From contig CP178758.1 of the NCBI GenBank assembly GCA_047651235.1, forward strand, positions 3,330,001 to 3,362,000: 32,000 nt of DNA. Direction: 5' to 3'. The DNA is from Candidatus Electrothrix yaqonensis (GTDB taxonomy: Bacteria; Desulfobacterota; Desulfobulbia; Desulfobulbales; Desulfobulbaceae). Below the pieces are notes generated by a model that saw only the letters and a program-made list of their open reading frames with translations, was not told the DNA's origin and searched no databases. Both the position numbers and the translations under genes were made by a program. Below are positions 9,501 to 27,960 of the stretch, piece by piece. Numbering within the stretch: the stretch's first letter is position 1; every line of letters starts with the position of its first letter.

Positions 9501-10153
9501 GCATATTTATACAGATCATCCGCAGTGATGTTGCCATCCTGCGAGAGATCGGCTTTCCCGGTGCGCAGCCCCTGCACCAGAAATCTTGTAAAAACAGAGC
9601 AGAAAGGCGAGCCTGCCACCTTATCTCCTTCATAGGCATACTGAACAGCATCGCTGGCGGTAAGCACAACTCGACCGTACCCCGTTCCTTTAAAGGCCGC
9701 TTCTATCCCCGCATCAGTTCCGACTGCACCTTTGAAACCGGAAGTAAAGGCCCCGCTGTGGCAGCAGTCCAGAATCAGGACAATGCGACGGGAAAGGCAT
9801 TCATCCATCAGATCGGAAATGTAACCGGCAGAAACAGCCGTTGCCCGCAGCCGGTTCTGTTTTGTATTGGGCATTGCCAGATAGAGCTTTCCCTTCAGAT
9901 CCTTGACACCGTGTCCGCTGAAATAGAGCAGAATGAGGTCATCCTTCTTTTTCTCAGCAAAAAGTTCCTCAACCGCCTCCCGCACCACATGCGACGGTTC
10001 GTTGATCACCGTTTCAACAGTAAAATTTCCGATCCTGGGATCACGCAGAACATCAGCAAGAGCCTGAACATCGTTCTGCGGTGTTTCCAGCCGGGAAAAA
10101 AAGGTATCCTGATATTCGCTGCTGCTGATCAGCAGTGCTGAACGGGTTCCCAT
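6506..10153 (-). CDS. Caspase-like peptidase (C14) fused to a STAND/NB-ARC-type P-loop NTPase and a long TPR array
   Basis: 1215 aa. Caspase dyad: His in LLYFSGHG, Cys in LILDCCHSG. Walker A: VVDGLAGIGKTSLAAKIA. Walker B: YLLVFDDLHEL. The C-terminal ~600 aa consist of repeated 40-aa TPR-like units (A...Y..A..I....GD..G.A..L..LG..Y). Confidence 0.9.
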   Translation of the reverse strand: MGTRSALLISSSEYQDTFFSRLETPQNDVQALADVLRDPRIGNFTVETVINEPSHVVREAVEELFAEKKKDDLILLYFSGHGVKDLKGKLYLAMPNTKQNRLRATAVSAGYISDLMDECLSRRIVLILDCCHSGAFTSGFKGAVGTDAGIEAAFKGTGYGRVVLTASDAVQYAYEGDKVAGSPFCSVFTRFLVQGLRTGKADLSQDGNITADDLYKYAHDQIIQMESDKQQTPGRWSFIQGELVIARNPAFAPESSPTEPTSPGKRPTTYCLRPQVRHFVDRREIRAQLRADLRDEQKVIIVVDGLAGIGKTSLAAKIAEEVEADFTGIYWTKCSAETDLDQLLAELAYFLSEQGDQTLSGVVEYPAPAANKISFLLTALAEQKYLLVFDDLHELLDEQCQIANEGLRCLFSSLLDQTHRSKALLVSRVTPLFCRCFSCQSKNTLEDIDPKSSLELLQILGVEEDQELLEQARRLTAGHPLAMELLASLAEVMPLEDILEDRTLFFHDTDVVEHLLRHLSSTLTTEERDLLTKLSVLPRPMYRQVISYLVGNRQAPGLLKSLTRKALVIFDRKTKLYRQHDLVREFSRAGISADERRDCHVRMAAYYEQLEFNPEKPTFGQVQQRLEAHYHTFRAGDIAAAAALLAPIAEYLRKWGYLERCRSLLEDGLTALEQLEPTEEHLLLRVDLLVEMGWLERSCEGLDKAVERCRQAEEILQIVPDEGREGKVCHALGKFLYEEAEWGESEKYFERAVALQKSQRNTGELAKVLYDLYLLYWNVGELEKIEAVSRDGITICEQEGDTASKCRILIKVLGKTFQVQRRWEEALTVYEESLKSRKGDDFLGQSLSLRMMGQVLRQQKQFAVALEKGMESLALAKKFGDILAQARALQDIGDTYRDAGDVNNALQFYEKSIEATKQSDDLSGRSDMLSDIGLSFQRAGELEKTLEQFQEALRLRKRNGDILGTRASLGQLGFFYSTKCSELKTALQYYNDAFEIAKQLGIALKVETGQNDIAAVYKKLGKLDESLKLFEDLLRRRKKRKNGYGVPLVLNHIGDIYLLKGNARKGLSFFEESLRMYRERKRIGGASVSLSYLGKAYIALGEYDKALSALEESLALRELMYSKAIPLTAIAEAYYHKNDIDIAKEKCEESIFISKKYGGRNQTGIALHLLSKILLKKGQRDEALQCVREAVDIFRTSGSRYLPEAEKTLAEIEKK

Positions 10154-10566
10154 CAGCTTTCTTCCTGTGCCGTTGATGTGTTCTCTGCAGGCAGCTGATT
10201 GAGCCGTTCAATCAGCGTTGTAATTTCGTCTTCGGTATACCGCTTTTTGGGCGTGAACTCGGCCTTGGCTCCATTCGGGGCTTCCACTGATACCTTGCGG
10301 GTGCCACCGACCCACTGCTGCAGCAGACTGATAAGGCCGGGAATCGCTGCCACTCCAATTGCCAGTACAACAGCTCCGGTTGTGAGTGGTTCACCCTTGG
10401 CTCCCTGAGCGCTCTTTTCCTTCTTCACTTTTGCCCGGTTAACGGATTCGATATCGAACCCTCTGAGCTGTCCGATCAGAGTCAGGGTCAGCTGTTCTAT
10501 CTCTATCTCGTCCGCATCGTCTTTATCCACCAGTATCCGCAGCTCCACAATACCACTGTCCGCCAT
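10153..10566 (-). CDS. Small membrane protein resembling effector-associated constant component EACC1
   Basis: 137 aa. Acidic N-terminal strand region (VELRILVDKDDADEIEIEQLTLTLIGQLRG), then one hydrophobic helix (TTGAVVLAIGVAAIPGLISLLQQWV), then a short beta-rich tail (RKVSVEAPNGAKAEFTPKK...LIERL). Its TGA overlaps the caspase gene ATG by 1 nt (TGATG at 10155-10151). The family name is from recollection of the EACC1 layout and was not searched. Confidence 0.55.
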   Translation of the reverse strand: MADSGIVELRILVDKDDADEIEIEQLTLTLIGQLRGFDIESVNRAKVKKEKSAQGAKGEPLTTGAVVLAIGVAAIPGLISLLQQWVGGTRKVSVEAPNGAKAEFTPKKRYTEDEITTLIERLNQLPAENTSTAQEES

Positions 10567-11149: not shown

Positions 11150-11581
11150 ATGAGTATTTCAGTATGGGATCCCTTTCGGGAAATGGAAGCATTGCTGGAT
11201 CGCTACAGCAATGCACGAAAAAGTGCGGCAGGTGACAACAGGCAGATAGAAGCCGGAGACTGGATGCCTGTGGTTGATATCGCAGAAACAGACAATGATT
11301 TTATCGTCAGGACTGAGCTGCCCGGTGTTGACAAGGATCATGTGCATGTCAACATCAACAACGGCGTACTGACCATCAAAGGTGAGAAGAAAACCGAAGC
11401 CAAGGATGCAAAACGGCACCGGGTCGAATGCGCCTACGGTTCCTTTGTCCGCAGTTTCACCCTGCCGCAGGATGTGGATGTGGAGAAAGTGGAAGCCGGA
11501 TATAAACACGGTATCCTCAACCTGACCATTCCCAAGCAGGAAAAGGCAAAACCGAAACAGATTGAGGTAAAAGTCAATTGA
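11150..11581 (+). CDS. Small heat-shock protein (Hsp20/alpha-crystallin family)
   Basis: 143 aa with AGGAGG RBS. WDPFREMEALLDRY...WMPVVDIAETDNDFIVRTELPGVDKDHVHVNINNGVLTIKGEKK...ECAYGSFVRSFTLP...GILNLTIPK is a canonical ACD. Confidence 0.9.
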   Translation: MSISVWDPFREMEALLDRYSNARKSAAGDNRQIEAGDWMPVVDIAETDNDFIVRTELPGVDKDHVHVNINNGVLTIKGEKKTEAKDAKRHRVECAYGSFVRSFTLPQDVDVEKVEAGYKHGILNLTIPKQEKAKPKQIEVKVN

Positions 11582-11600
11582 TGTCAATTGATCCGCAACA

Positions 11601-11634
11601 ACCTGAACAGAACCTGAACAGAATCCTGTTCAGG
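11601..11634 (+). other. Inter-cistronic hairpin with duplicated 5' arm between the two Hsp20 genes
   Basis: ACCTGAACAG ACCTGAACAG AATC CTGTTCAGG. The 9-bp stem CCTGAACAG (11613-11621) / CTGTTCAGG (11626-11634) has a 4-nt loop. A second copy of the 5' arm at 11602-11610 could pair alternatively. No U-tract follows. Confidence 0.4.
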
Positions 11635-11700
11635 CTGACTGAAACGGTTCATTGTCCAACTGATATGATCTGTATAACGAAAGATAAAAGGAGGGGAATT

Positions 11701-12141
11701 ATGAACCTGAGTGTTTGGAATCCGTTCCAGGATATGGAGGCATTGTTGGATAGATACGGCAAATCGGATAGGCAAACTACGGCTGCCGGAGAGAGGAACA
11801 AAGCCCTTGAAGTCGGCGACTGGATGCCGGTGGTGGATATCGATGAAACCGACAACGAGTTCATCGTCAGAGCTGAGCTGCCCGGCGTGGACAAAGAGAA
11901 TGTTCAGGTCGCGGTTGACAATGGCATCCTGACCATCAGGGGGGAGAAGAAAAGCGAGTTCAAGGATGAAAAGCGGCATCGGGTTGAATGCGCCTATGGC
12001 TCCTTTGTCCGCAGCTTCACCATGCCCCGGTATGTGGATGTGGAAAAAGTGGAAGCAGCCTATAAGGAAGGTATCCTGAGGCTGACTATCCCGAAGGAGG
12101 AAAAGGCCAAACCGAAACAGATCACGGTGAACGTGCAGTAA
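11701..12141 (+). CDS. Small heat-shock protein (Hsp20 family), paralogue of 11150..11581
   Basis: ORF 11578..12141. Start at ATG 11701 (MNLSVWNPFQDMEALLDRY...) with AAAGGAGGGG RBS. Same ACD layout as the upstream gene. Confidence 0.9.
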   Translation: MNLSVWNPFQDMEALLDRYGKSDRQTTAAGERNKALEVGDWMPVVDIDETDNEFIVRAELPGVDKENVQVAVDNGILTIRGEKKSEFKDEKRHRVECAYGSFVRSFTMPRYVDVEKVEAAYKEGILRLTIPKEEKAKPKQITVNVQ

Positions 12142-15569: not shown

Positions 15570-15757
15570 CTACGCCCCCTGCCGCTTTGCCCGCACCCGT
15601 GCCAAATCCTTATAGCATCATCTTAGATAATTCTACTTTGGCACTCACAAAGGCTGTGGTAATAATTTGCAATTCGGTTGTTTCTCATATGCGAAATCAA
15701 TCGAAGCTTGCCTCTTTTCATGCCGTTGACGAAGCTGTCTTATAACTTCATCTTCGT

Positions 15758-16632
15758 TTACATCTCGACGTGGAAAATTGACTTGAGTAATGTTGTTATA
15801 TCAGCGCAACTCAATAACGGGACACCGACTTGATGGTATAATCGTTGCTCGACCATAAACAACATGGCCATCATGACCATAGTCATATGATGATGCCAAG
15901 CCAGCCATCCCCGAGCCTGATAATCACCCATTCCACATTCATTTTTTGCATCCTGAAATGGCCGTTCAACCCAATATCGTTGAGCTTGCATATATGCAAG
16001 TCGTCTTGTTGACGTGTTACTTTCCGCATTACTTAGGCTATATTTAATTTTTTTCGGGGACTTAACCTCACGTCTGACAACTAATTCTACTTTGGTGACC
16101 ATACCATTAACTATTTAATAATATTAATAATACTAAAAACAGGGGTTTTTAAATACTTAATAAAAATAAGCTAGTTATGTTTATGATCGCCAAAGTAGAA
16201 CTACTTGACAGTTGTCGGTTTTACCAAGCTGCCCGCACCATTGACGAGAAACCCCAACAGACATTTTACCCTTTTTGGGTATCCCGGATTCATCAATAAA
16301 AAGAGCGCTATCTTCCTTTCCTCCAAAAATGTTATCCGCATCTTTAGCTACTTGGTTGTTTACAGGACGCCAATCCCAGTTCGAGTCGGAAAGAAAATAC
16401 TGGAGGGGCTCATATTTAACGCCCGGAACCTTTTCCTCCATACGTTCCATGTTTTTTTGTCAGCCTGGAATAAACCTTTCAAGTATTGGAATGCTTTATC
16501 TGACAAACTTACCGTATGTCTCTTAAAAAAATGATGATATCTTTCGTGAAAAGACGTAAGTTGCCGGGCGATGCCGGTCAACTCAAAGAATTTGTCATGG
16601 GGACTTCTTTTTTCGGGGCTGGGAGCGTTCAT
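15758..16632 (-). pseudogene. IS701-like DDE transposase, disrupted
   Basis: There are three fragments. The first two are ORF 16360..16632 (...YHHFFKRHTVSLSDKAFQYLKGLFQADKK) and ORF 16181..16450 (MERMEEKVPGVKYEPLQYFLSDSNWDW...ALFIDESGIPKKGK...GKTDNCQV). They are out of frame at a run of 7 A (complement of 16452-16458), where 8 would restore ...ADKKNMERMEE. The third is ORF 15758..16102 (...YSLSNAE...RYWVERPFQDAKNECGMGDYQARGWLAWHHHMTMVMMA). The segment that should carry the second catalytic Asp is missing. Confidence 0.7.
16084..16201 (+). mobile_element. 118-bp MITE (copy 1) sharing the IS701-like terminal repeats
   Basis: Ends are ATTCTACTTTGGTGACCAT... and ...ATGATCGCCAAAGTAGAAC, with an AT-rich core. 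It is flanked by TA/CTA on both sides (16081-16083 and 16201-16203), consistent with a target duplication. It lies inside the transposase pseudogene. Confidence 0.7.
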
Positions 16633-16840
16633 AAAAAGAATAAAGTTATAATCAGGGCGATTGACGGGTATTTTTTTGATAGCTGTTATCAGGTGCTAGC
16701 TTGATCAAAAAGCGATAAAATTTTCCTAATGAAAGATACAACTTTATCCGGATACTGCAAGAAGTTTTTACAAATAGATCAAAAGGTTATGGTTGCCAAA
16801 GTAGAATCAATCAGACCGTAATAACGGCAATGCGTTGCTT

Positions 16841-16878
16841 AGCCCTGAGTCCTCCCCGGATTCAGGGCTTTTCTTTTT
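16841..16878 (+). terminator. Intrinsic terminator-like hairpin
   Basis: AGCCCTGA (16841-16848) pairs with TCAGGGCT (16862-16869), followed by TTTCTTTTT. No intact plus-strand gene lies upstream, so it is probably a relic of the pre-IS context. Confidence 0.45.
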
Positions 16879-16918
16879 GTCCCGCCGCCTTCAATGCCCT
16901 GTTTTTCCTTCGTCGCTG

Positions 16919-16947
16919 TTGACACATATACTTTGGAGCTTTATCAT
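16919..16947 (+). promoter_or_regulatory. Sigma-70-like promoter facing the AAA+ ATPase gene
   Basis: TTGACA (16919-16924), a 17-nt spacer, then TATCAT (16942-16947). It is 88 nt upstream of ATG 17035 and lies outside the left inverted repeat. Confidence 0.45.
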
Positions 16948-16977
16948 GCAAAATACACTGAACATTATCTTGTTTTT

Positions 16978-17069
16978 TGCAGGGCCTCTACAACGGATAC
17001 AACATAATATCTTTCAGCAAGGACGGAATAATCAATGGACTCTGACAGCGGCGGCTTTCTGCCGATCAA
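16978..17069. repeat. Left copy of the 92-bp inverted repeat (junction of 381-aa-like gene end and AAA gene start)
   Basis: Reverse complement of 28318-28409 with 87/92 identity by hand alignment. The perfect 51-bp core is 17004-17054. It encodes an orphan GLYNGYNIISFSKDGIINGL* (16983-17045) overlapping ATG 17035. Confidence 0.85.
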
Positions 17070-19002
17070 ACAGGCTGAACTGGAAGAACAGATCAAAAAG
17101 GCATCCGCCTTTCTCCGGCGGGCTTCCTGGCACCCCAGAGTAAAAAAGGAACGCCTCCGGGAATCAGCCAATGCCCATGAGATCATCAGGAGTATCACCA
17201 ATGCCTCGGCCCAGGAAACGTCCAGCATTGCGGACAAGGCGAAACAACTCAGTGATGACCCGCTGCTGATTTATCATCCGGATGTCGCTTTTTCTATGAA
17301 TGCGGTGCGCAAAGGGATCGCGCTGGGCATGCATACGGCCAACCTGTATTCCAAGGCCTCCAATTTTTATACCCTCAAGGCCCAGCAGGCTGACGGCGCC
17401 CTGAAAAATAATCCCGAAGCCCAGACCGAATTCCGACAGAAGAATATCACCACCTCGGCGGTGCTGCTCTTTGTCACGGCCAATTATATCGTCTCCGCTT
17501 TGAGTGACTACAAAAGCGAAGCTCTGGATTCGATACAGGTCAGTTTTCCCGGTCTGCCCGAAGAACTGCATCTGGCCAATTATATCCATGCCCTCAACTA
17601 TCTGCTGTACTATCACGGCTTTTTTCTCAATGCGGACAACATCCGGACCCCGCTGGATGTTGTCAAACTGACCCAGCTTTATTACCAGGAAGTGCTCAAT
17701 GAGATAGAGTTTATCCGGGATTCCCTCAAGTATACGGAACCCTTTGAGAGCAAGGGCTACAAGCTGGAAGGCGAGGACTTTGTCATTGAAGGATTCACCG
17801 CCCATACCGTGCAGGTGAGTGGCAGCGTGGATTTCAACCGCCTGGAATGGGGAGAGATTGTCGGTAATACCATGTACAAGCACAGCTCAAAACGGACCAT
17901 CCAGTTCCTGATGTGCTATGACGTGGAGCGGAAAAAGAATCCCATCAATGAGCTGGGCGGCTTCCCTGCTGTGACCATGGAGTACGGTCCTGCCGGAACC
18001 GGCAAAAGCATGGGCATCTCCGCGACCGCAACCGAACTTCACGACCGCTGTACGGATCTGGGCATCAAGTTTTTGTATCATCCCATCCCCCAATCGGTTG
18101 TCTCCACCTATCAGGGCGGCAGCAGCGAGAACATGGAAAAATGGTTCCGCTCCGCCACCTCACCGGACATGATTATTTATGCCCCCATTGATGACGGCGA
18201 CGGCAAACTCCGCGACCGGGGCGCACGGGGTACGTCCGCCGGGGTGATTGAGGTGGTGGAGAGCTTTCTGGTCAACACCGAGGGCGCTTCGGCAGCCAAG
18301 CAGGGCAACCGGCTGATCCAGATCTACACCAATCTGCCGGAAACTCTGGATAAAGCCGTGCTGTCCCGCGTGCAGAAACGCTCCCTGCTTGCCGGAGCCA
18401 CCACTGTCGAGGATTTTCTGGATCAGGATTATATCTGGTGGCAGACCTATGAGACTATGGTGCCCGGTTTTGTGGATATGCAGCATCCGGAAGAGTACGA
18501 GTTCATGTCCGCTCAGGAAATTGCCGACCGGATCAGCGAAAAATATGATGAACAGGGCGAAGCTCAGGTCTACAAAATCAAGACGATTATCGAAAAAACC
18601 ATGCAGGAGCACAGTATTGAAGAGCATCTGTTCTTTGCCCGGCTCTTTCATACTATCAAAGCCGAGTTTCCCGGCTTCACTTCACGGGATGTGCGGAACA
18701 TCCAGACTGCCGTCAATACTCGGCTGACGGATTTTGATTTTCCTGCTGAATGGATGAATGATCATGCCTGCTTTTTCGCCGGATCTTATGATGAAAAACT
18801 GAGCATGCTCAAGGAGCTGATGAAGGCGAATATGCAGGGCCTGTCGTTCGCCAGTATCCGCTTTCAGGAGGTGGTCCGGTATCTGGACAATATGGCCATG
18901 ATCGTGGACAAGGATTTTGAAAACAAGGTGGCCCAGCGTATGGAGGAATATCGGGTGGAACAGGAGGCCCGGCGGCGCCTAGCGGAAATAACAGCAGCCT
19001 GA
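17035..19002 (+). CDS. AAA+ ATPase (classical AAA, SpoVK/CbbX/EccA-like) with large helical N-domain and C-terminal extension
   Basis: 655 aa. Walker A: EYGPAGTGKSMG. Walker B region: MIIYAPIDDGDGKL (Asp-Asp instead of Asp-Glu). Sensor-1: IYTNLPETLD. LSRVQKR resembles the SRF-type arginine motif. About 310 aa of helical sequence precede the ATPase and about 200 aa follow it. Confidence 0.85.
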   Translation: MDSDSGGFLPIKQAELEEQIKKASAFLRRASWHPRVKKERLRESANAHEIIRSITNASAQETSSIADKAKQLSDDPLLIYHPDVAFSMNAVRKGIALGMHTANLYSKASNFYTLKAQQADGALKNNPEAQTEFRQKNITTSAVLLFVTANYIVSALSDYKSEALDSIQVSFPGLPEELHLANYIHALNYLLYYHGFFLNADNIRTPLDVVKLTQLYYQEVLNEIEFIRDSLKYTEPFESKGYKLEGEDFVIEGFTAHTVQVSGSVDFNRLEWGEIVGNTMYKHSSKRTIQFLMCYDVERKKNPINELGGFPAVTMEYGPAGTGKSMGISATATELHDRCTDLGIKFLYHPIPQSVVSTYQGGSSENMEKWFRSATSPDMIIYAPIDDGDGKLRDRGARGTSAGVIEVVESFLVNTEGASAAKQGNRLIQIYTNLPETLDKAVLSRVQKRSLLAGATTVEDFLDQDYIWWQTYETMVPGFVDMQHPEEYEFMSAQEIADRISEKYDEQGEAQVYKIKTIIEKTMQEHSIEEHLFFARLFHTIKAEFPGFTSRDVRNIQTAVNTRLTDFDFPAEWMNDHACFFAGSYDEKLSMLKELMKANMQGLSFASIRFQEVVRYLDNMAMIVDKDFENKVAQRMEEYRVEQEARRRLAEITAA

Positions 19003-19089
19003 GATGAAATTGCTCAAGGAAAAAAACTTGCGTTATTAAGGAACAACTCTAATTATCACACGGAACGCGACAAGTTGTAGGAATATCTT

Positions 19090-20154
19090 ATGAAAAAAAA
19101 GAATAAGCACCTCTGTGACTATCTTTATACGGACACCAGAAAGATTCTCTCCGTGTACAGCCAGCTGACCGGGGCGGTTGTTGCCGCCGGAGAATCCGTG
19201 TATACGACGGCCAGTCAGGCGGAGAATAAAAAGAAATACGATTTCAAGATATTCAAGAACGTAAAGAACGATGCTGACGGCAGCACCCAGGATAAGCAGG
19301 GCCTGCAGGAGCAGGTCAGGTCGCACCATACCCTGTTCCGGGAGCTTGAAGAGGAACTGGTGCATCAGGGATATCTGCTCGATTTATCTGGTAAAGAAAT
19401 GGCCAAAAAGATTCAGGACAAGGAATTCAGAAAGACGTTAAAGGATACGTTCTGTGTCAGAGTGACAGGAAGATGCGTCATCGAGCATTACGAGAGGATG
19501 AAAAAAATCTCCGAGTCGTTTCCGAATATCGCCGCGCTCATTAACCAGAGCAATAAAGCAGCGGTGAAAAACACGGAAGCGTATAAAAAACTCGTCGAAC
19601 AAATTAAAACCAAAGAGGCTGAAGTCGCAAGAATCAAAGACAGAAATGCCAGAAATATACAGCAGGCTCCATTAAAAGAACAAAAAAAACGGCTGACAGC
19701 GCTGCTGGAAGAGCAGACCACGGCCGGCATGGTTGAGCAGTGGGTTCTTGACGGCCTGAAAACCTGGATCGATACCTTCATACCGGGAATCATTAATCTG
19801 CGGGTCTATCCGGCGCAGGAGCACATGGATGTACAGGTGTTCGGACATCTGAAGCAGGATAATTTCTTTGACATGGATATCAGCGGATTCCACTTTACCT
19901 ACGGCTCAATCCCGACCGAAGAGATGACGATGATCGGTATTGTTACTTCCGTACCCAACCCGGAGGATGCTGAGTTCAATCCCCATCAGGAATTCCAGGC
20001 CGGTGAGCTGTCGAGCAGGGAAGCTGTGGAGCGCGGCTTCCGTGGTGTCTTCCGGGGATTTGATACCTTTGAACAGATGGTACGCACCTGCAGATATCCG
20101 AGGGTGCTGGTGTATCCCCTGCTGGTGTACCGGCAGATGGGGGCGAAGAAATAA
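19090..20154 (+). CDS. Hypothetical 354-aa protein (no family recognised), downstream partner of the AAA+ ATPase
   Basis: Long ORF with uniform coding character. N-terminus: CDYLYTDTRKILSVYSQLTG. Central Lys/Glu-rich helical segment. C-terminus: ...CRYPRVLVYPLLVYRQMGAKK. A diverged copy of the C-terminus survives at 22353-22439. Confidence 0.7.
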   Translation: MKKKNKHLCDYLYTDTRKILSVYSQLTGAVVAAGESVYTTASQAENKKKYDFKIFKNVKNDADGSTQDKQGLQEQVRSHHTLFRELEEELVHQGYLLDLSGKEMAKKIQDKEFRKTLKDTFCVRVTGRCVIEHYERMKKISESFPNIAALINQSNKAAVKNTEAYKKLVEQIKTKEAEVARIKDRNARNIQQAPLKEQKKRLTALLEEQTTAGMVEQWVLDGLKTWIDTFIPGIINLRVYPAQEHMDVQVFGHLKQDNFFDMDISGFHFTYGSIPTEEMTMIGIVTSVPNPEDAEFNPHQEFQAGELSSREAVERGFRGVFRGFDTFEQMVRTCRYPRVLVYPLLVYRQMGAKK

Positions 20155-20169
20155 TTTTTCTGATCAAAC

Positions 20170-20212
20170 GCGGATCTTCAGCCCGAAGGATCACCTTGGA
20201 CTGAAGATCCGC
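20170..20212. terminator. Hairpin between convergent genes (probable bidirectional terminator)
   Basis: 12-bp perfect stem GCGGATCTTCAG (20170-20181) / CTGAAGATCCGC (20201-20212) with a 19-nt loop. It lies between the stops at 20154 (+) and 20224 (-). Confidence 0.55.
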
Positions 20213-20223
20213 CTCCCTTCTAT

Positions 20224-22167
20224 CTATCCTTCTGTCTTTACGCCCTCTACCTCTCCTACCTCCTCTTCCTGCACCAATCTGCCCTTACACGCCTCCAGAA
20301 TACTTGCCAGCATTTGACTGTAGGACATGTCCTGCAGCGCAGCCATCTTGGCCAGGTGGCCGTCCCAGCACCAGCCCGGATTGGGATTGACTTCCAGCAG
20401 TCGAGGCGTACCGTTGTCGTCCACGCGCCAATCAAAGCGGGCATAATCACGGCACTCCAGGCGTTCAAAGAGCTTGACGCAGCTTGCACCCAGGAAGCGC
20501 TCCACATCTTCGGACAATTCTGCCGGAATGGATGTGATTTTCCAGTACGGTGAATCCGGATTCCATTTGGCCTCGTAGCCGCAGATTCTGGGCAGGTCTT
20601 CAGGCAGGGCTGAATAGTCTTCCTCAATCACGGGCAGTATCATATATGAGCTGCCCGGATTACCGACAATCCCCACGCTGATATCCTTGCCGGTGAGGAA
20701 CTCTTCAACCAGGATGGGATTGTTATACCCGAATTTATCCCGGATCCCGGTCACGGCACTTTCCAGAGTTTCCAGATCATAGCAGACATTGCTCTGGGTA
20801 ATACCGAAGCTGGAGTCCCCGAAATTCGGCTTGACAATCACCGGAAAGGTGAGCGGAAATTCAACAAACTGGATATCCTCCGGTTTGATCATAAACGCAC
20901 CCGGAACCGGGATATCCATTTCCGTGGCAATCCCCCGGATCAGCGACTTGTCGTAGCAGTAGGCCAGGCATTGCGGAGTACCGCCGGAATAATGCATACC
21001 CAGCAGTTCCAGCAGAGCAGCCACATGCAGTTCCTTGGTCGCCTCATTCTGAAAGCCTTCATCACAGAGATTGAACACATAAGTGCATTTCCCCTGGAGC
21101 TTGATCAGATCCTGAAGCAGAGTATCGTGGTTGTACAGATAGGTGAAATTGCAGTTCGGGATCTCTGCCAGGGCCTTTTTCAGCTCATTGATGGTATGGA
21201 AATCGTCGTCATCAAAATTAGCTCCCGGCTTGACCACATCTGTTTTGCCTGGATCGCCCAGCAGAACAACGACTGAGTCGGCTACATCGGGACTTTCACG
21301 GACTGCGGACCATTCTTTGTGGGCTACCCCGGTTATTACCACCCGCCGGGCCATCATACCTAAGTCCTGGTTCCGTTTTGATTCTGCTGCAACCTCTGTG
21401 CAGCTCCGGCAATCCCTGAAACCTGCCTTGGACAGCAACGTGTCAAGCTCCTCTATAGAATAAAGGCGTTCTGCATAGAACTGATCCGCAATCACGCCTT
21501 TGGTCACATGGGTGATCACTTCTCTGGAAACCAGCCGTTCCCGATTTTCTGAGAGCGAACGCTCCCGGCAGACAAAATAATTCTTATCTATCCACTCCCA
21601 GCTGCGGGCATCAAAATGCTCGCGCATATATTCACCGTCCGTGATATCAATGAGCAGTCTGCCGTCGGGCCGCAGAATGCGCATAACCTCTTTCAGAATT
21701 CTGGCATCATCCTTACTGGAGTCAAAATAGCCGAAGCTGTTGCCTGCAATGATCACCGCATGGAATTCATCGGTTGGAAAAGGCAGTTTCCGGGCATCAC
21801 CTTCTTTAAAAAGGACATTCATCCCTTCAGTCCTGCTGACTTTTCTGGCCCGGTTGATCAGGTAATGGGAACGGTCCAGGCCGACAACATTGCTGTACCC
21901 CCTGCGGGCTATCTCCAGGGTATGCCGTCCCTGACCGCAGCAGAGATCCAGGATTTTACTCTCCTTGGGCAGATCAAGGGTATTGAGAAAAATATCCACC
22001 TCTTTTTTAGTGATTTCCTTATCTTCAACCACATCACCGTCGGTACGCAGATAATTGGCATTAAAGAGATGCCGCCACCAGTCAGCCTTGACGTAGCTTT
22101 CCAGGTTATCAACCGGCCCCAGCACCTCAACGATCTTTTTAGTTCTGCTTTTTTTCGGCTTTGCCAT
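20224..22167 (-). CDS. Fusion protein: class I SAM-dependent methyltransferase (N) + D-Ala-D-Ala-ligase-like ATP-grasp ligase (C)
   Basis: ORF 20224..22197. Start at ATG 22167 (MAKPKKSRTKK...) with GAGGGA RBS. MTase motif I: ILDLCCGQGRH. Post-I: VVGLD. ATP-grasp signatures: FPVIVKPNFGDSSFGI, ILVEEFLTGKDISVGIVG, ARFDWRVDDNGTPRLLEVNPNPG. Confidence 0.85.
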   Translation of the reverse strand: MAKPKKSRTKKIVEVLGPVDNLESYVKADWWRHLFNANYLRTDGDVVEDKEITKKEVDIFLNTLDLPKESKILDLCCGQGRHTLEIARRGYSNVVGLDRSHYLINRARKVSRTEGMNVLFKEGDARKLPFPTDEFHAVIIAGNSFGYFDSSKDDARILKEVMRILRPDGRLLIDITDGEYMREHFDARSWEWIDKNYFVCRERSLSENRERLVSREVITHVTKGVIADQFYAERLYSIEELDTLLSKAGFRDCRSCTEVAAESKRNQDLGMMARRVVITGVAHKEWSAVRESPDVADSVVVLLGDPGKTDVVKPGANFDDDDFHTINELKKALAEIPNCNFTYLYNHDTLLQDLIKLQGKCTYVFNLCDEGFQNEATKELHVAALLELLGMHYSGGTPQCLAYCYDKSLIRGIATEMDIPVPGAFMIKPEDIQFVEFPLTFPVIVKPNFGDSSFGITQSNVCYDLETLESAVTGIRDKFGYNNPILVEEFLTGKDISVGIVGNPGSSYMILPVIEEDYSALPEDLPRICGYEAKWNPDSPYWKITSIPAELSEDVERFLGASCVKLFERLECRDYARFDWRVDDNGTPRLLEVNPNPGWCWDGHLAKMAALQDMSYSQMLASILEACKGRLVQEEEVGEVEGVKTEG

Positions 22168-22201
22168 GTTTTTTGTCCCTCTGCGCCTGTTGCGCAAAAA
22201 A

Positions 22202-22229
22202 ATGCTGCCTGTTCAGCAGCATGAACAGG
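22202..22229 (-). promoter_or_regulatory. Two mutually exclusive hairpins plus U-tract in the leader of the methyltransferase/ATP-grasp gene
   Basis: The minus strand reads CCTGTTCA TGCTGC TGAACAGG CAGCAT TTTTTT. One structure is the terminator-like stem ATGCTGC/GCAGCAT (22222-22202), followed by the complement of the A-run 22196-22201. The other is the competing 8-bp stem CCTGTTCA/TGAACAGG (22229-22208). The ATG is about 30 nt downstream. Confidence 0.4.
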
Positions 22230-22304
22230 CCCGATATACGGGCGTGCTCCAACGCGCGTGCGCCGGATACGAACACCTGCTCTGATGTTTCCCTTTACAC
22301 GACA
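22227..22304 (+). repeat. 78-bp direct repeat, copy A
   Basis: AGGCCCGATATACGGGCGTGCTCCAACGCGCGTGCGCCGGATACGAACACCTGCTCTGATGTTTCCCTTTACACGACA has one mismatch to 23400-23477. Weaker similarity continues about 24 nt further. The internal hairpin GGCGTGC-N10-GTGCGCC has two G.U pairs that only work on the plus strand. Confidence 0.8.
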
Positions 22305-22352
22305 GCACGGCTTTCAGCCAGTAAAATGACAATGGAAACAGAACCGGACTGT

Positions 22353-22439
22353 ATTTTTCAAGGACAGAATAGTGGGTACCTGCAGACCTACAGATACCCG
22401 AAGGCGCTGGTGTCTCCACTGCTGATGTATCACCTGATG
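22353..22439 (+). pseudogene. C-terminal remnant of a paralogue of the 354-aa gene
   Basis: IFQGQNSGYLQTYRYPKALVSPLLMYHLM compares with VFRGFDTFEQMVRTCRYPRVLVYPLLVYRQM at 20050-20142. Nucleotide similarity is roughly 80 percent over the last ~50 nt by eye. There is no upstream coding continuation. Confidence 0.5.
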
Positions 22440-22558
22440 TGTCAGGTCGTCTTTCCTGTTTTTCCTTGACTTTTCTGTTTCAGGGTGTTCTGTTCCGGGC
22501 ATCCGATAAAAACGGGTTGAGCGGAATTTATATCAAAACAACTGAAAGGAATTTGGCG

Positions 22559-23335
22559 ATGCGACATAGAATACGCTTTCCAAAAAGAGATACAGAAACT
22601 CTTGGACAGGATGAAATATTTTTTTATTTGATGAATCCATCCGGCAGCGAAAAAATTCGTTTCCATGATTATGACCTTATTTACAGCAGACCGAATTTAT
22701 ATGAACAGCTGTTTTATGAACGGCTTCAGTGTCAGTCGCCGATAAAGGTAACGGAAATTCTGGAACATGCTCTTAATCAGTCAGAGCATAATCTCAGCGA
22801 ACTGAGAGTGCTGGATTTCGGCGCCGGAAACGGTATGATGGGAGAGACGTTAAAAAATCAGGGCGTTGCGAGGCTGATCGGTGTGGACATCATCCCGGAA
22901 GCCAGGGAAGCAACGGAAAGAGACAGGCCGGGGATATACGATGCATACTATGTTGCTGATTTCTGCAATCCTGATGAAGAACTTCATGAGGAAATAGCCT
23001 CATGGATGCCGGACTGCCTGACAACAGTGGCTGCCCTCGGATTCGGAGATATTCCGCCTCAGGCCTTTTTCAGAGCGTTTAATCTTATCCGGAGCAAAGG
23101 CTGGGTGGCGTTCAATATCAAAGAGACGTTTTTAAGTCACTCTGATACTTCGGGGTTTTCCCGCATGATCCGCGAGCTGATGTTTTCGGAATATTTTCAT
23201 GTCTACCATATGGAGCGGTACCGCCACAGGATGTCGATGGACGGCAAGCCCTTGTACTATTTCGGAGTTGCAGGAAGAAAGAACGCTCACATCCCCGATA
23301 CGTTCTTATCGGAATATAATCTCCACGGCTGTTGA
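22559..23335 (+). CDS. Class I SAM-dependent methyltransferase
   Basis: ORF 22439..23335. Start at ATG 22559 (MRHRIRFPKRDTE...) with AAAGGA RBS. Motif I: VLDFGAGNGMMG. Post-I: LIGVDI. N-terminal segment: IRFHDYDLIYSRPNLYEQLFYERLQCQSP. Confidence 0.8.
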   Translation: MRHRIRFPKRDTETLGQDEIFFYLMNPSGSEKIRFHDYDLIYSRPNLYEQLFYERLQCQSPIKVTEILEHALNQSEHNLSELRVLDFGAGNGMMGETLKNQGVARLIGVDIIPEAREATERDRPGIYDAYYVADFCNPDEELHEEIASWMPDCLTTVAALGFGDIPPQAFFRAFNLIRSKGWVAFNIKETFLSHSDTSGFSRMIRELMFSEYFHVYHMERYRHRMSMDGKPLYYFGVAGRKNAHIPDTFLSEYNLHGC

Positions 23336-23399
23336 ATCTGTTGTTTCCTGCGTGATGATTGTTCCGGGAAAATCCTGTAATATTGTCCTTGAAGCAGCT

Positions 23400-23477
23400 A
23401 GGCCCGACATACGGGCGTGCTCCAACGCGCGTGCGCCGGATACGAACACCTGCTCTGATGTTTCCCTTTACACGACA
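23400..23477 (+). repeat. 78-bp direct repeat, copy B
   Basis: Same sequence as 22227-22304 except T/C at the ninth base. It lies 65 nt after the methyltransferase stop. Confidence 0.8.
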
Positions 23478-23730
23478 ACTGCGCTGTCTACCAGCAAAAT
23501 CCATCGCTCAAAGACACAGGCCGATCTTTTTTTGTCCTGCAGATCTGCCGCGTTCTGCAACTGCAGGACAGAACAATGAACCGGCGGCCCGCAGTTCGTT
23601 CAGAACCCGAATATTCCTTGATGTTACCCGGTGACGGTGTAAATATACATCTGTGCCGAATACAGTAAAGCGGTACCTCAGGGGGAGGGCGGGGTGACGC
23701 CCGGTCGGGAGGGTGAAGCGGAGGGGATTG

Positions 23731-24310
23731 ATGGAACTGGAACTGCTCGGACAGATCTGGCAATGGATTGCGGAGGCTGAAGCATGGGAATGGGTGTTCA
23801 GCGGGGTCGGGCTGCCGATAGCCGGATGGCTTATCCTGCGTTACCGAAGAAAGCCCCCTGCTCCGCAGGACACCGCCCCGCCGGTCAGTAACACCTTTAC
23901 CAGCAGCGGCAGTGGTGATCAGAACATTGCACAGGGCGATCATCCCATCGGCAAGCAGGTTAACCTCAATGCGGAAGAGATCACCTCACCGCAGCAGGAG
24001 GCAACGGGCCACCACAACGTCTTCAGCCAGACCGGCGATGTCCGTTATGAGGAACATCACCACCACTACGCCCGCACCGAACAGGGTATCCCTTTGCAGC
24101 GGCCCAGGCAGGCCGAGCATCTTGTGGGCAGGGAGAAACTGCTCAAGGAAGTACTGGCCGCGCTCCGGCCCGGCAGGGCGGTAACGCTCTGCGGACCCGG
24201 CGGCATCGACAAGACCGCGCTGGCCTCCAGGGTTGCCTGGGAGCTGAGTCCTGACGGCCAGCCCCCTGCCCTGTTCCCGGACGGCCTGATCTTCTACTTG
24301 TCGCGTCCCG
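23731..24310 (+). pseudogene. N-terminal stump of a membrane-anchored STAND (NB-ARC-type) NTPase, truncated by IS insertion
   Basis: MELELLGQIWQW...GVGLPIAGWLILRY is a TM helix. It is followed by a low-complexity linker, then LVGREKLLKEVLAAL..GRAVTLCGPGGIDKTALASRVA (Walker A). The reading frame runs into the IS end (TGTGA at 24311) and stops there. Confidence 0.65.
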
Positions 24311-25405
24311 TGTGATAATATACCTGCGAGAAGTTGGCCCTTGTTTCTTGCCCGTGAACGTATAACCGTTCTTTTATCAGAACATAAACTGCCCGGTTTA
24401 TCATCATGAATATCGCACTGCACAAAAGAGCGCGTACAACCCCGGCTGTCCGCCGGGAAATTCAGCGCTCAGAACTTTCCGAACGTAAGTTGTCGGAAAA
24501 ATACGGCATCAGCAGAAGTACGGTCCGGAAATGGAAATACCGTGATACCGCCGACGATTTTTCGCACAGGCCGCATAATCTGCACGCGACGCTCACGGAT
24601 CCGGAAGAAGCCGTGGTTGTTGAGCTGCGCAGAACGCTCCTTCTTCCGATTGACGATCTCCTTGTTGTTGTGCGTGAATTCATCTGTCCGCATATGTCGC
24701 GCTCCGCCCTTGACCGCTGCCTGCGGCGGCACGGAGTCTCAAATCTGAAAGAGCTGATCCCGGCGGAGGAAAACGAAGAGAACCGTCCGAAAACATTTAA
24801 AGATTACGAACCTGGTTTTGTGCATGCCGATATAAAATATCTCCCGCGGATGCCGGACGAAACGGAGCGGAAATATCTTTTTGTCGGCATCGACAGGGCC
24901 ACCCGGTGGGTGTACATGGAGATCCGGGCTTCGAAAACTGCGGAATCCGCCCGCTCTTTTCTGAATAATCTCATTGGGAAGGCCCCGTTCATGATCTCAA
25001 AAATTCTCACCGACAACGGGAAGGAGTTCACCGACCGTTTCTGCCCGTCCGGAGAGCGTGAACCGACCGGAAATCACGTATTTGATCGGAAATGCGGGGA
25101 GAACGGCATTGAGCACCGTCTGATAAAACCGCGCAGACCGCAGACAAACGGCATGGTCGAGCGCTTCAACGGCAGAAGTAAAGAAGTTGTTCAGCAGACA
25201 AAGTTTGAATCGTCCCGTCAGCTTAAGGAAATACTGCTGCAGTATCTCCGTATTTACAATCACCATATTCCGCAGAAAAATCCCGGTCATATCACGCCGG
25301 TTGAGGCTCTGAAAAATTGGCGGAAAACGCATCCCGATTTATTTAAAAAACAGGTATACAATCAGTCGGGGCTTGACACGTATGTAGTAAAGTGACTTGT
25401 TCACA
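24311..25405 (+). mobile_element. IS481-family insertion sequence (apparently intact)
   Basis: Ends are TGTGA... (24311) and ...TCACA (25405), enclosing a complete transposase gene. The boundaries are approximate and I could not identify a target duplication. Confidence 0.7.
24406..25395 (+). CDS. IS481-family transposase (HTH + rve integrase core)
   Basis: 329 aa. N-terminal HTH: LSEKYGISRSTVRKWKYR. DDE core: FVHADIKYL...LFVGIDRATRW...ILTDNGKEF...RPQTNGMVERFN. Confidence 0.9.
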   Translation: MNIALHKRARTTPAVRREIQRSELSERKLSEKYGISRSTVRKWKYRDTADDFSHRPHNLHATLTDPEEAVVVELRRTLLLPIDDLLVVVREFICPHMSRSALDRCLRRHGVSNLKELIPAEENEENRPKTFKDYEPGFVHADIKYLPRMPDETERKYLFVGIDRATRWVYMEIRASKTAESARSFLNNLIGKAPFMISKILTDNGKEFTDRFCPSGEREPTGNHVFDRKCGENGIEHRLIKPRRPQTNGMVERFNGRSKEVVQQTKFESSRQLKEILLQYLRIYNHHIPQKNPGHITPVEALKNWRKTHPDLFKKQVYNQSGLDTYVVK

Positions 25406-25644
25406 CCTCCTCCGACAGAAATGCCTTAGGCCTGCACGTTATTGCTGTAATCCGACTTCGAGATCCCGTTCCAATCCGGTCGTACTGACCGGAACGGCTC
25501 TTTCTGTTTTCGTCCGGATGCGCCGGGTCGTTGAAAAATTACGATCAGGGATGAGGATGGGTATTTTGTGCGTCTGGGGACCAAGGTCAGCGGGAAGATG
25601 CTTGAGAAGAAATAGAGTTGACGGAGGTCGGGTGCAGCGGCTGG

Positions 25645-26070
25645 TTATATACCCTGTCGTGGCGGCGGGGAAATACCGCAGCTTGAATCGCTAAGTTCTC
25701 GGAAAAGGGTCCCCTCCGATCTGGATGAAACTGTGTAAGTTTCGGTTAGGCTACATAGAATATTATTTCCCGAGTCAACTGCCTGTATTTGAAAATCTAT
25801 TGGTCCCGTAGGTATATTCTGGATGGTACATGAATAGGTAATAGCGGAAGAATCGAAAGTCATGGGAATGCTTGTGCCGTAAAAAACTTGCCTATGGGTT
25901 AAAGAGAACTTTACGGTACTGATAGCGATTGCACCCGAGAAGTTGTCGACTGTCACGGTTATGGTGACATCCTGTCCACCACTGCTGTGAGGAGGAGAAT
26001 CTACACTACCACAGGACGAACATTGTAAGGCTGCTATTGCAGCCATAATAAACACAAAAGTTATTCGCAT
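25645..26070 (-). CDS. Small secreted protein or lipoprotein, beta-sandwich-like
   Basis: ORF 25645..26130. Start at ATG 26070 (MRITFVFIMAAIAALQCSSCGS). It has a signal peptide with a non-canonical lipobox-like LQC, followed by alternating beta-strand pattern. It is the last gene of the AT-rich cluster. Confidence 0.55.
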   Translation of the reverse strand: MRITFVFIMAAIAALQCSSCGSVDSPPHSSGGQDVTITVTVDNFSGAIAISTVKFSLTHRQVFYGTSIPMTFDSSAITYSCTIQNIPTGPIDFQIQAVDSGNNILCSLTETYTVSSRSEGTLFRELSDSSCGISPPPRQGI

Positions 26071-26151
26071 CGTCGTTTTCTCTCTATTAGGGCAGCAAGA
26101 ATGCTTTGCTATTGACCAAAGCATTCCCATGGTACAGTCACTTTGACCAAA

Positions 26152-27153
26152 TTATTCATCCTCTTGTTCGTAGGTTTCGGTGTTGGCCAAGTCCATAGAT
26201 TCGTCATTGGGCATCACCGGTACATCTGAAAGAATCTTGTAGTTCGCTTTCGGATTCTTCAACACAGGGATAATCCAATCGCCATCATAGGACGTTCCGT
26301 CGTACTGCGCAACCTCTCCCAATGTAAAGAGTGCCGGTTCAATCGTTGTCCCGTCATCATATAAAATATACCTCGCATCGGTAACATTGAGACTGTCAAC
26401 AAGATCTTTTTTCGACTTTTTGTAGTGACGAGTGAGCATCTCCTTGACTTGTTTTTTGACCTGTGTTTCAGATAGATAATCGTTCGCATCAAATTTCAGA
26501 TTCTTCGACATCTTGGTCCATTTTTTGATGAGTCCGGCAAGTTCACCATCCTCGCCAAGAGTGACGACCATGCGTGAGTGACCAACAACTGGAACATCCT
26601 TTATGCGACGGTCATAATATACGGTGACCAGTTTCTTGTAGTCCTGAGAAGTCCCGTCTTCACTATTGTACACTGCTTTATTCACACCGCCCACATGCGC
26701 AAGCTTAAGTTCGCTACGGATTGATCCTTTGAGGATGCCCAGGTCGGCCATATGCTTTTTGGCAATCCGCACCGCTTCGTTCTTTCCTGGCAGGTTGCTG
26801 GTATCTCCATCACCTTCGTACTTCTTGGTTCCCTTGTTGAAAACAACATCATCGCCTTCCAAGGCAAGGTATCCCGCTGGGTCGTTCTCGACGCTAAAAA
26901 GCTGCTCGGATGCACCTGTCTTAGAGTTATTTTCGGATAGAGTGACATCGGTATAGGAGCTTATTCTTTCAGCCCAGCCTTTTGTTTTTTTTTGTTTGGA
27001 GGATTCTTGTTCGAGCATATACTCAAACCCTCCTCCGTCCTGGTGTAGACCGTTCTCAACGTCAATCTGCATATTATCGACATTCACCTCTTGAGCATGA
27101 ACATTCGCCACGCACATGGTGGCTATTGCGGCAAACGTAATGATAGCTTTCAT
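26152..27153 (-). CDS. Secreted 333-aa protein of unknown function
   Basis: Signal peptide MKAIITFAAIATMCVANVHAQE with AAAGGAG RBS. Lys/Asp-rich body. The segment NEAVRIAKKHMADLGIL resembles propeptide/PepSY-type helices (weak). Confidence 0.65.
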   Translation of the reverse strand: MKAIITFAAIATMCVANVHAQEVNVDNMQIDVENGLHQDGGGFEYMLEQESSKQKKTKGWAERISSYTDVTLSENNSKTGASEQLFSVENDPAGYLALEGDDVVFNKGTKKYEGDGDTSNLPGKNEAVRIAKKHMADLGILKGSIRSELKLAHVGGVNKAVYNSEDGTSQDYKKLVTVYYDRRIKDVPVVGHSRMVVTLGEDGELAGLIKKWTKMSKNLKFDANDYLSETQVKKQVKEMLTRHYKKSKKDLVDSLNVTDARYILYDDGTTIEPALFTLGEVAQYDGTSYDGDWIIPVLKNPKANYKILSDVPVMPNDESMDLANTETYEQEDE

Positions 27154-27181
27154 TGTTTTCTCCTTTCTGGATTTTTTTGGA

Positions 27182-27919
27182 TTAGTACTGGTACCAATTA
27201 ACTAGGTAGCTTGGGTTCGGCTCATCAGGGGCATGAGAATACTTGTAGCGATCATTTTGTACACCTGGAGTCATCACGGCAGAACCGAACTCAGCAAGTT
27301 TTTCCCACCACCAGAAACCGGTGTGATAACCTTCGGCGTTGATAGCATCGAACCACGACTGCCAAACTAAATTGTTACCAGCCATTCGTGCGCCAAAGTA
27401 GTTAGAGATGTCGTCTGCGGTGGAGATTACCGCATTGGTTCTGAATCCAAGAGCTTGATGGAGTCCGTCGAAGATACCGGTAGATGATTGCCAAGGTGAC
27501 CACCAGTCACTTCTTTCCAGAGAGCTGGGGATTGTCTGACATGAGTGAAAAACGATGAACTCTGTGTCGTTATCTCCATAGCCACCATTGGATGACCAGC
27601 CAACATTTCCCAAGTTGATATACGTAGATGCACCGCTTCCTGCACCATTGGAATAGACCCCGATGAGGTACTGGTTTCCATGACCACAGTAGTAGGCGAA
27701 ATCCACGCTGTCGACAAAGCCGTTGTTGGCCAACGTAAACATGGGCTCGCTCGCCCAATAGTATTGCTCATAATCAAAATGCTTGATGAAGTTGTAGACA
27801 ACTCCGGGGGTTGCAGGATCGTTGCCACAGTACCCTCCTTCTTCCCACGCCAGAGCATGAGCCGTGGACGACATAGTCAACAACAGGCCAGCGGTCATAA
27901 GAATGGATGTATTTCGCAT
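27182..27919 (-). CDS. Secreted 245-aa protein with clan-CD-peptidase-like His/Cys arrangement
   Basis: Signal peptide MRNTSILMTAGLLLTMSSTAHA. A hydrophobic strand then His-Gly (VDFAYYCGHGN), followed by a second hydrophobic strand ending in Cys (TEFIVFHSCQT). This order (His before Cys, each after a beta-strand) is that of caspase/gingipain/legumain-type enzymes. Trp/Tyr-rich C-terminus. Confidence 0.6.
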   Translation of the reverse strand: MRNTSILMTAGLLLTMSSTAHALAWEEGGYCGNDPATPGVVYNFIKHFDYEQYYWASEPMFTLANNGFVDSVDFAYYCGHGNQYLIGVYSNGAGSGASTYINLGNVGWSSNGGYGDNDTEFIVFHSCQTIPSSLERSDWWSPWQSSTGIFDGLHQALGFRTNAVISTADDISNYFGARMAGNNLVWQSWFDAINAEGYHTGFWWWEKLAEFGSAVMTPGVQNDRYKYSHAPDEPNPSYLVNWYQY

Positions 27920-27960
27920 AGTTTTCCCCTTCTATGAATAAATATTTGTATTTGATACTA

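Follow-up and report, generated by a model that had tools for sequence, protein, structure and literature searches.

Several described systems resemble parts of the locus analysed here. Dodola pairs a DUF6414 protein with a ClpB-like ATPase, according to the summaries of Millman et al. 2022 in bioRxiv 10.1101/2024.10.26.620412 and PMC11514479. EACC1-caspase modules (eLife 2020;9:e52696; bioRxiv 10.1101/2025.11.14.688446) are of the protease-effector kind, and in the EACC1-protease-STAND architecture cleavage releases a pore-forming toxin (bioRxiv 10.1101/2025.11.14.688446). The remaining ones are the classic AAA unfoldases (Cdc48/p97 D2, VAT, Vps4/CdvC, spastin, FtsH) and the ESCRT-III/Vps4 and PspA-associated AAA+ operons (PMC11237479). 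Our locus lies in a stretch of 32,000 nucleotides (nt) from Candidatus Electrothrix yaqonensis (contig CP178758.1, positions 3,330,001 to 3,362,000), which we call the window and to which unlabelled coordinates refer. It presents an AAA ATPase gene followed by a gene for a protein of 354 residues, and a preliminary description made from the sequence had taken this pair for half of a four-gene module with a role in conflict, defence or stress. Both open reading frames (ORFs) are there as it described them:

17035-19002, plus strand: g3, intact gene of an AAA ATPase of 655 residues, of the classic clade, with a Pfam AAA match and PDB matches to Cdc48, Vps4 and spastin
19090-20154, plus strand: intact gene of the 354-residue DUF6414 protein (Pfam PF19952), of a solitary, context-hopping subfamily

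We consider it likely that the ATPase gene is the third gene of a six-gene operon, that an inversion broke it from the first two genes, that the fourth gene was cut and that the DUF6414 gene is an accidental neighbour; the intact operon, we propose, may serve in protein remodelling at the membrane.

The ATPase gene belongs, as g3, to a widespread operon of six genes in a fixed order. These encode a coiled-coil protein (g1), the 381-residue protein of the window (g2), the AAA ATPase (g3), a DUF6638 protein (g4), a protein with three transmembrane (TM) helices (g5) and a protein with three TM helices and a large C-terminal domain (g6). An iterative search of all fetched loci found g1-g6 complete and ordered in 62 of the 66 related loci with sufficient flank; three of the others hold g1-g4 and one holds g1-g5. 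The six families were recovered again, each in 66-81 of 81 loci, by an independent all-against-all clustering, in which the next commonest neighbour reached only 21 loci. Orthologues of g1 lie upstream of the ATPase gene in 70 of the 81 loci and g2 is kept in 79. The junction repeat that had been used to tie both genes of the window pair to the 455-residue and 381-residue genes holds good for the ATPase gene, which adjoins them in the same order in 70-79 of 81 loci, and not for the 354-residue gene. The conserved module has six members rather than four, and DUF6414 is not one of them.

The same architecture is seen among the called genes of Desulfopila, one Bdellovibrionota genome, one Bacteroidota metagenome-assembled genome and one Patescibacteria genome, and in all of these DUF6638 directly follows the ATPase gene. 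The called operons encode proteins of about 440-455 (g1), 360-390 (g2), 416 (g4), 175-200 (g5) and 520-570 residues (g6). In the closest intact operons, those of Desulfopila and E. aarhusensis, g4 begins 1-2 nt past the ATPase stop codon. In one Flavobacteriaceae locus (L040, 11947-12531) and 13 others of this family a NUDIX hydrolase gene (about 200 residues) stands between the ATPase and DUF6638 genes. Operons were found in Flavobacteriaceae, Chitinophagales, Patescibacteria, Trueperaceae, Bdellovibrionota and Desulfobacterota, and homologues of the ATPase itself in Electrothrix, Desulfopila, Trueperaceae, Bdellovibrionota, Patescibacteria, Bacteroidota and Gammaproteobacteria. Full-length homologues are 38-92% identical at 98-100% coverage, with 86-92% identity to the Electrothrix orthologues, 76% to that of Desulfopila and 38-47% across phyla. 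A collection with one genome per species contains at least 531 loci of the ATPase family, and marine Flavobacteriaceae make up the majority of the 80 that were listed. The context of the operon in Flavobacteriaceae and Patescibacteria is a housekeeping one and no defence island. Its flanks in Flavobacteriaceae, syntenic across genera, carry genes for a porin, acyl-CoA dehydrogenase, RNase HII, AnmK, an ABC-F ATPase and glutamate dehydrogenase, and those in the Patescibacteria genome carry sigma-70, Obg and DedA/VTT genes.

When the Desulfopila proteins were searched against the 32-kb window with tblastn, g1 (30882-29515), g2 (29487-28342) and g3 (17035-19002) were found intact, and there was no trace of g5, g6 or of g4 beyond a short stub. 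The first two genes lie on the strand opposite to g3 and 9.3 kb away from it. The features that bear on this break, which include two copies of an element resembling a miniature inverted-repeat transposable element (MITE), are:

29515-30882, minus strand: g1, gene of a soluble coiled-coil protein of 455 residues, 78% identical over 428 aligned residues to Desulfopila g1
28342-29487, minus strand: g2, gene of a soluble protein of 381 residues without a Pfam family, 66% identical to Desulfopila g2
16082-16203, no strand: left copy of the 122-nt MITE-like element, among insertion sequence (IS) fragments
27959-28080, no strand: right copy of this element, an inverted repeat 97% identical to 16082-16203, with terminal inverted repeats of its own
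16978-17069, no strand: junction copy A, which combines the final 19 codons of g2 with the overlapping, genuine start of the ATPase gene
28318-28409, no strand: junction copy B, a 92-nt inverted repeat 95% identical to 16978-17069

The segment 16204-27958 lies between the two inverted MITE-like copies, and flipping it brings g1, g2, an insertion and g3 onto one strand, with the insertion of about 1.2 kb still between g2 and g3. We therefore read the arrangement as an inversion of 16204-27958 that has split g1-g2 from g3. The 92-nt inverted repeat contains the 3' end of the 381-residue gene and the 5' start of the ATPase gene; tblastn places g2 residues 356-381 at 16965-17042 and ATPase residues 1-12 at 28352-28317, and within copy B positions 28318-28341 are a 24-nt remnant of the start of the ATPase gene. 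The inversion proposed in the preliminary description is borne out by this repeat and by the MITE-bounded segment. Relatives in the genus show the same junction in other states. It is uninterrupted in a locus of an uncultured Electrothrix (L009). In E. aarhusensis and E. gigas it is doubled, over about 100 nt, as direct repeats around insertions, at 6387-8036 of L005 (a Gp49/HTH toxin-antitoxin pair), 4837-10035 of L010 (about 5 kb) and 8721-10036 of L012. These insertions make the g2-g3 junction an insertion hot spot in the genus Electrothrix, and the repeats suggest that the state of the window is a further rearrangement of this hot spot. Positions 16841-19024 are colinear with 7810-10002 of the E. 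aarhusensis locus L005, and a promoter-like site upstream of g3 (16919-16947; 11 of 12 consensus matches) has a sequence that is shared with E. aarhusensis.

A second break follows the ATPase gene, and it involves two short features:

19004-19024, plus strand: stub of g4 (DUF6638), ATGAAATTGCTCAAGGAAAAA, its first 7 codons (MKLLKEK), comparable to 9982-10002 of the E. aarhusensis locus L005
19052-19080, no strand: terminal inverted repeat of the IS481 type, in a copy at the rearrangement junction that separates the g4 stub from the DUF6414 gene

The stub starts 1 nt past the ATPase stop codon, as g4 does where the operon is intact, and homology ends after the seven codons. The 24-nt core of the repeat at 19052-19080 matches 24296-24319, ahead of the rve-family transposase gene at 24406-25395; the repeat has 2 matches in the window against 0 expected and is absent upstream of DUF6414 in the relatives. 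The two breaks of the window are accordingly the inverted segment 16204-27958, which parts g1-g2 from g3, and the cut of g4 after 7 codons with the IS481-type end copy next to it, g5 and g6 being absent from the window. The genes g1, g2 and g3 are full-length here and each has every residue that is invariant in its own family alignment, which leads us to conclude that either the rearrangement is recent or the genes are functional with g4-g6 encoded elsewhere. The window copy of the operon may thus be crippled, or it may work with g4-g6 from another place in the genome. An 11-nt match of 25430-25440 to the 5' region of g4, seen by eye and considered as a reciprocal breakpoint, was dismissed as chance. 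The IS481-type element itself lies in 23713-25395 (plus strand), with its inverted repeat at 24291-24319, and it breaks into an ORF (23713-24315) for a STAND-like NTPase. Its transposase gene is followed by no matching repeat at the right end, and the sole other copy in the window is that at 19052-19080.

The 354-residue protein, for which the preliminary description had found no name, matches Pfam DUF6414 (PF19952) over residues 8-302 (E 8.7e-15; 55.6 bits against a cutoff of 25), and all of its listed full-length homologues carry this family. These homologues, 47-79% identical, come from species of Candidatus Electrothrix and from Xanthomonas, Lysobacter, Sideroxydans, Halopseudomonas and many metagenomes; outside Electrothrix the identity is about 50%. 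We looked at 81 DUF6414 loci, 30 of them with at least 2 kb of upstream and 41 with at least 2 kb of downstream sequence. None of the g1-g6 families was found in any of these, no ATPase is a conserved neighbour in them, and no neighbour family at all recurs in more than 4 of the 81. Conversely, no DUF6414 gene was present in the AAA loci examined. A check of neighbourhood conservation, which had been suggested for both the 354-residue and the 381-residue families, gives opposite answers: the latter is held with the ATPase and the former is solitary. Because DUF6414 does not co-occur with the operon families and is solitary in its own loci, the adjacency of the ATPase and DUF6414 genes is an accident of rearrangement between unrelated genes. 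DNA homology between the window and the DUF6414 relatives is limited to the DUF6414 ORF, and the five contexts that were examined gene by gene are all different. They include a neighbourhood with EACC1 and caspase genes (Ca. E. aestuarii), a gene standing alone (Sideroxydans), one beside TonB/ExbBD and one beside an ANT-domain gene. The idea that DUF6414 is a diverged DUF6638 was rejected, the hhalign probability being 0.1%.

DUF6414 probably belongs to a conflict system, without a partner at the window locus. In the locus of Ca. Electrothrix aestuarii (CP159373; L001, 10001-12556) a 76%-identical DUF6414 gene is followed directly by an EACC1 gene and a stand-alone caspase gene of 372 residues, and this suggests that DUF6414 can act as a third component, possibly a sensor or regulator, of a protease-effector module. 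This closest named homologue is directly upstream of the EACC1 and caspase genes, whereas the window DUF6414 has neither of them beside it, and among the individually examined contexts only this one shows the association. An AlphaFold2 (AF2) model of DUF6414, with a predicted local distance difference test (pLDDT) score of 73.7, gave no Foldseek match in the PDB or among the viral structures of BFVD. A scan of viral contigs returned one match only, so the gene is not typically phage-borne. No PADLOC model matched the window protein at E<=1, and among the PADLOC matches of 57 subfamily members at E<=10 none was named DolA, the existence of a DolA model in PADLOC v2 not being directly confirmed. 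A weak tblastn match to the C-terminus of DUF6414 lies at 22356-22439 (E 0.019, 34 residues) and is possibly what had been described as a decayed paralogue nearby. The STAND NTPases and mobile-element debris reported around the locus are indeed present, together with caspase genes. Nine kb from the DUF6414 gene a pair on the minus strand (6506-10566) consists of an EACC1-like ORF of 137 residues (10153-10566; Pfam E 0.011, below the cutoff; BLASTP against E. aestuarii EACC1 7e-7) and, directly downstream of it, a 1215-residue protein with caspase (Peptidase_C14), NB-ARC and TPR regions, which corresponds to the toxin-releasing EACC1-protease-STAND architecture mentioned at the outset.

The 655-residue protein is, by its matches, a classic-clade AAA ATPase. 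Residues 317-449 match Pfam AAA (PF00004; E 3.6e-10; 40.8 bits against a gathering cutoff of 21.2), the best PDB sequence matches are Cdc48 D2 (E 1.9e-8), VAT, Afg2, Pex6, spastin and Vps4/CdvC, and a search of NCBIfam at E<=1 returned CdvC, CDC48 and Orc1/Cdc6 alone, with no model of CbbX, SpoVK or EccA among the matches. FtsH aligns with an hhalign probability of 96%. These PDB and NCBIfam matches speak for the classic clade and leave the earlier assignment to the SpoVK/CbbX/EccA group unsupported. The motifs that had been named in the core were all present and invariant in an alignment of 15 sequences spanning several phyla: in Walker A (GPAGTGKS, residues 318-325) G318 and G321-K324, in sensor 1 T432-N433, and in the SR-type arginine motif S444-R445 together with R449. 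The two arginines belong to the second region of homology, which lines up with TNRP...LLR in FtsH. Where a pore loop is expected, the sequence is the aromatic ST[YF]QGGS, with Q360-G361-G362 invariant.

The atypical Walker B that was noted in the window protein is real and conserved across the family as [IV][YF][AG]PIDD[AG][ED], with I385-D386-D387 invariant in the same alignment. It has neither the canonical hhhhDE nor a glutamate at the catalytic position, and its conservation suggests a trait of the whole family and no local mutation. Ungapped hidden Markov model alignments to Cdc48 and FtsH set the canonical D-E against P384-I385, and the second D of DExD against D387. A shift by two residues, which sets YAPI-DD-[AG]-[ED] opposite IIFI-DE-I-D, is considered the functionally more plausible register. 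Compared with the classic AAA unfoldases, the family is alike in the AAA core, Walker A, sensor-1 asparagine, arginines of the second region of homology and pore loop. It differs from them in the PIDD[AG][ED] Walker B and in a pore loop of the type aromatic-Q-G, where theirs is aromatic-hydrophobic-G. The window ATPase has a single AAA module between an N-terminal domain of about 300 residues and a C-terminal domain of about 200 residues without detectable relatives, and it carries no MIT, CDC48_N or protease domain. Both flanking regions, which the preliminary description had seen as well, are conserved in the family and have no match in Pfam or the PDB.

For g1 no Pfam family recurred among 16 orthologues at E<=10, and the best PDB match was no better than E 0.004, to a keratin coiled coil. 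A near-invariant YGID(P) motif is found at its C-terminus (residues 416-419). Assigning g1 to PspA, Snf7 or TelA was considered and dropped, as the consensus of weak Pfam hits over the 16 orthologues amounted to coiled-coil noise alone. The g2 family comprises 277 clusters in an exhaustive HMMER search, with full-length members of about 350-415 residues and no larger fusion proteins among these clusters. Searches of g4, g5 and g6 against Pfam and PADLOC gave DUF6638 as the sole match, and a literature search found no paper mentioning DUF6638. An AF2 model of DUF6638 is of good quality (pLDDT 90.2; predicted TM-score, pTM, 0.85). PADLOC, PHROGs and NCBIfam searches of the four window proteins returned nothing more telling than generic AAA matches and a single PHROG whose function is unknown, and hhalign comparisons of all alignments against each other (AAA, g1, g2, g4 and DUF6414) found no shared domains. 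Hydropathy predicts about three TM helices each in g5 and g6 and none in g1-g4. Because g6 has a K- and R-rich N-terminus and roughly three TM helices, its C-terminal domain of about 420 residues would be expected outside the cytoplasm. Having no match in PADLOC, in the literature or, beyond the AAA domain, in the PDB, the six-gene operon appears to be undescribed.

What such an operon could do is suggested by its composition. In the intact operon the ATPase would assemble into a ring and thread or remodel its protein substrate, because it combines Walker A, an acidic DD pair, the sensor-1 asparagine, two arginines and an aromatic pore loop. It might work on the cytoplasmic side of the membrane, where g5 and g6 would supply its platform and g1, g2 and g4 would be scaffold, adaptor or substrate. 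The N-domain of the ATPase might dock onto the conserved C-terminal YGID of g1. ATPase motifs, soluble partners and two membrane proteins together lead us to infer a membrane-anchored machine for remodelling or extraction. The handling of cell-envelope or membrane proteins seems a more likely role than phage defence. A more specific proposal, which we put forward tentatively, is that the operon may be a previously undescribed membrane-anchored AAA+ machine for protein extraction, secretion or membrane remodelling whose soluble partners have folds unlike solved structures. The ESCRT-III/Vps4 and PspA-associated operons could be an analogy and nothing closer: they likewise bring together membrane proteins, an ATPase of the classic AAA type and a long helical protein that has a conserved peptide at its C-terminus, but g1 is twice the size of ESCRT-III and the operon holds three further proteins without counterparts.

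Several observations weigh against our reading, on the side of function as well as of mechanism. The function given to the operon is one that we infer. Profile searches of the PDB with g1, g2 and g4 found no sequence relatives and thus no recognisable partner fold, and the AF2 model of DUF6638 had no Foldseek match in the PDB (best E-value 2.9). At the sequence level no Snf7, PspA or MIT match was obtained for the ATPase (E<=1) or for the 16 g1 orthologues (E<=10), which leaves the ESCRT-like analogy unsupported. The register of Walker B is ambiguous, and should P-I occupy the D-E positions the ATPase may hydrolyse ATP poorly or have a switch role. For the exact mechanism by which g4 was truncated, the 29-nt copy of an inverted repeat is thin evidence; no copy of the IS or MITE sequences turned up when all fetched loci were searched by BLAST, and the ends of the IS could not be delimited. 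Mis-assembly at the repeats of 92-122 nt is possible in what is one window. The patchy distribution across phyla at about 40% identity indicates horizontal transfer, which is likewise typical of defence systems.

This last point raises the question whether the six-gene operon is an anti-phage or abortive-infection system, of which the window holds a decaying copy in a defence island. The patchy distribution would fit, as would the toxin-antitoxin and IS insertions that fill the locus in cable bacteria and the position of the window copy near the EACC1-like and caspase-STAND module and a second STAND fragment. We regard this as unlikely, since no component matches any of the 5027 PADLOC models and the operon is syntenic among housekeeping genes across many Flavobacteriaceae genera, with housekeeping flanks also in Patescibacteria. 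The proposed conflict or defence role of the window genes likewise finds no support in PADLOC or in this context. Mis-assembly, in which the true genome would have an intact operon and the DUF6414 gene elsewhere, is an improbable explanation. The breakpoints do fall on repeats (the 122-nt MITE, the 92-nt duplication and the IS end), classic sites of short-read mis-joins, but the repeat at the g4 junction is a mere 29 nt long, assemblies of related Electrothrix independently have insertions and duplications at the same g2/g3 junction, and the window shows no sign of a collapsed repeat.

We give very little credence to the view that the ATPase and DUF6414 genes form a variant of the Dodola anti-phage system. 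An AAA+ gene does adjoin a member of Pfam DUF6414, as in the composition of Dodola, but this ATPase is the g3 orthologue of another operon and of the classic AAA clade, not Clp. Neither window protein matches a PADLOC Dodola model or any other (E<=1), the DUF6414 subfamily, itself solitary, yielded no DolA, and the adjacency is unique to the window and sits on a rearrangement junction. An adjacency made by rearrangement renders the resemblance to Dodola coincidental. Least credible of all is the four-gene conflict or stress module of the preliminary description, with the 354-residue protein as cognate partner of the ATPase and the 455- and 381-residue proteins as further members. It is true that the DUF6414 gene starts 87 nt downstream of the ATPase gene on the same strand, that no terminator-like site was found between them by consensus matching alone, that the junction repeat ties the ATPase gene to the 381- and 455-residue genes, and that STAND and caspase genes and IS elements are nearby. 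However, the ATPase and DUF6414 were not found together in the AAA loci examined or in the 81 DUF6414 loci, of the native downstream gene, DUF6638, no more than 7 codons are left ahead of the IS end copy, the conserved module has six genes, and DUF6414 is not homologous to DUF6638.

A broken six-gene operon beside a chance neighbour hence remains our preferred reading. Recognising the accident of rearrangement averts a false annotation as a four-gene defence module or a Dodola variant, and it shows that the mobile elements of this genome reshuffle operons and can yield deceptive gene pairs. The pair of ATPase and DUF6414 genes is ordinary, a product of mobile-element activity, and the operon is a real and apparently undescribed AAA+ system that is better studied where it is intact. 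Beyond the generic AAA domain none of its components has a known function, a mention in the literature or a solved structural relative. Carriers include the cultured Maribacter, Polaribacter, Winogradskyella and Desulfopila sp. IMCC35008, in which an intact copy is testable if the strains are tractable, and the family-wide DD Walker B poses a concrete biochemical question.

The window contains further features around these genes. A nest of IS debris occupies 15630-16810. Besides the left MITE-like copy it contains fragments of DDE_Tnp_1 (15758-16102) and DDE_5 (16181-16450) and one more copy of a terminal repeat (16783-16807). Inside the inverted segment, at 26152-27919 on the minus strand, are genes for a DUF6345 protein of 245 residues and a 333-residue protein without a Pfam family; the N-termini of both are hydrophobic and resemble signal peptides. 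The gene at 20224-22197 (minus strand), which converges on that of DUF6414, encodes a 657-residue fusion of an S-adenosylmethionine-dependent methyltransferase and an ATP-grasp domain of the D-Ala-D-Ala ligase type, and direct repeats of 101 nt (91% identical) surround the gene of a 298-residue methyltransferase at 22227-23500. Two tandem HSP20 genes lie at 11150-12141 on the plus strand and have in common a 300-nt direct repeat of 80% identity, and an HSP20 gene is also found near the Desulfopila operon (L006, 1114-1602).

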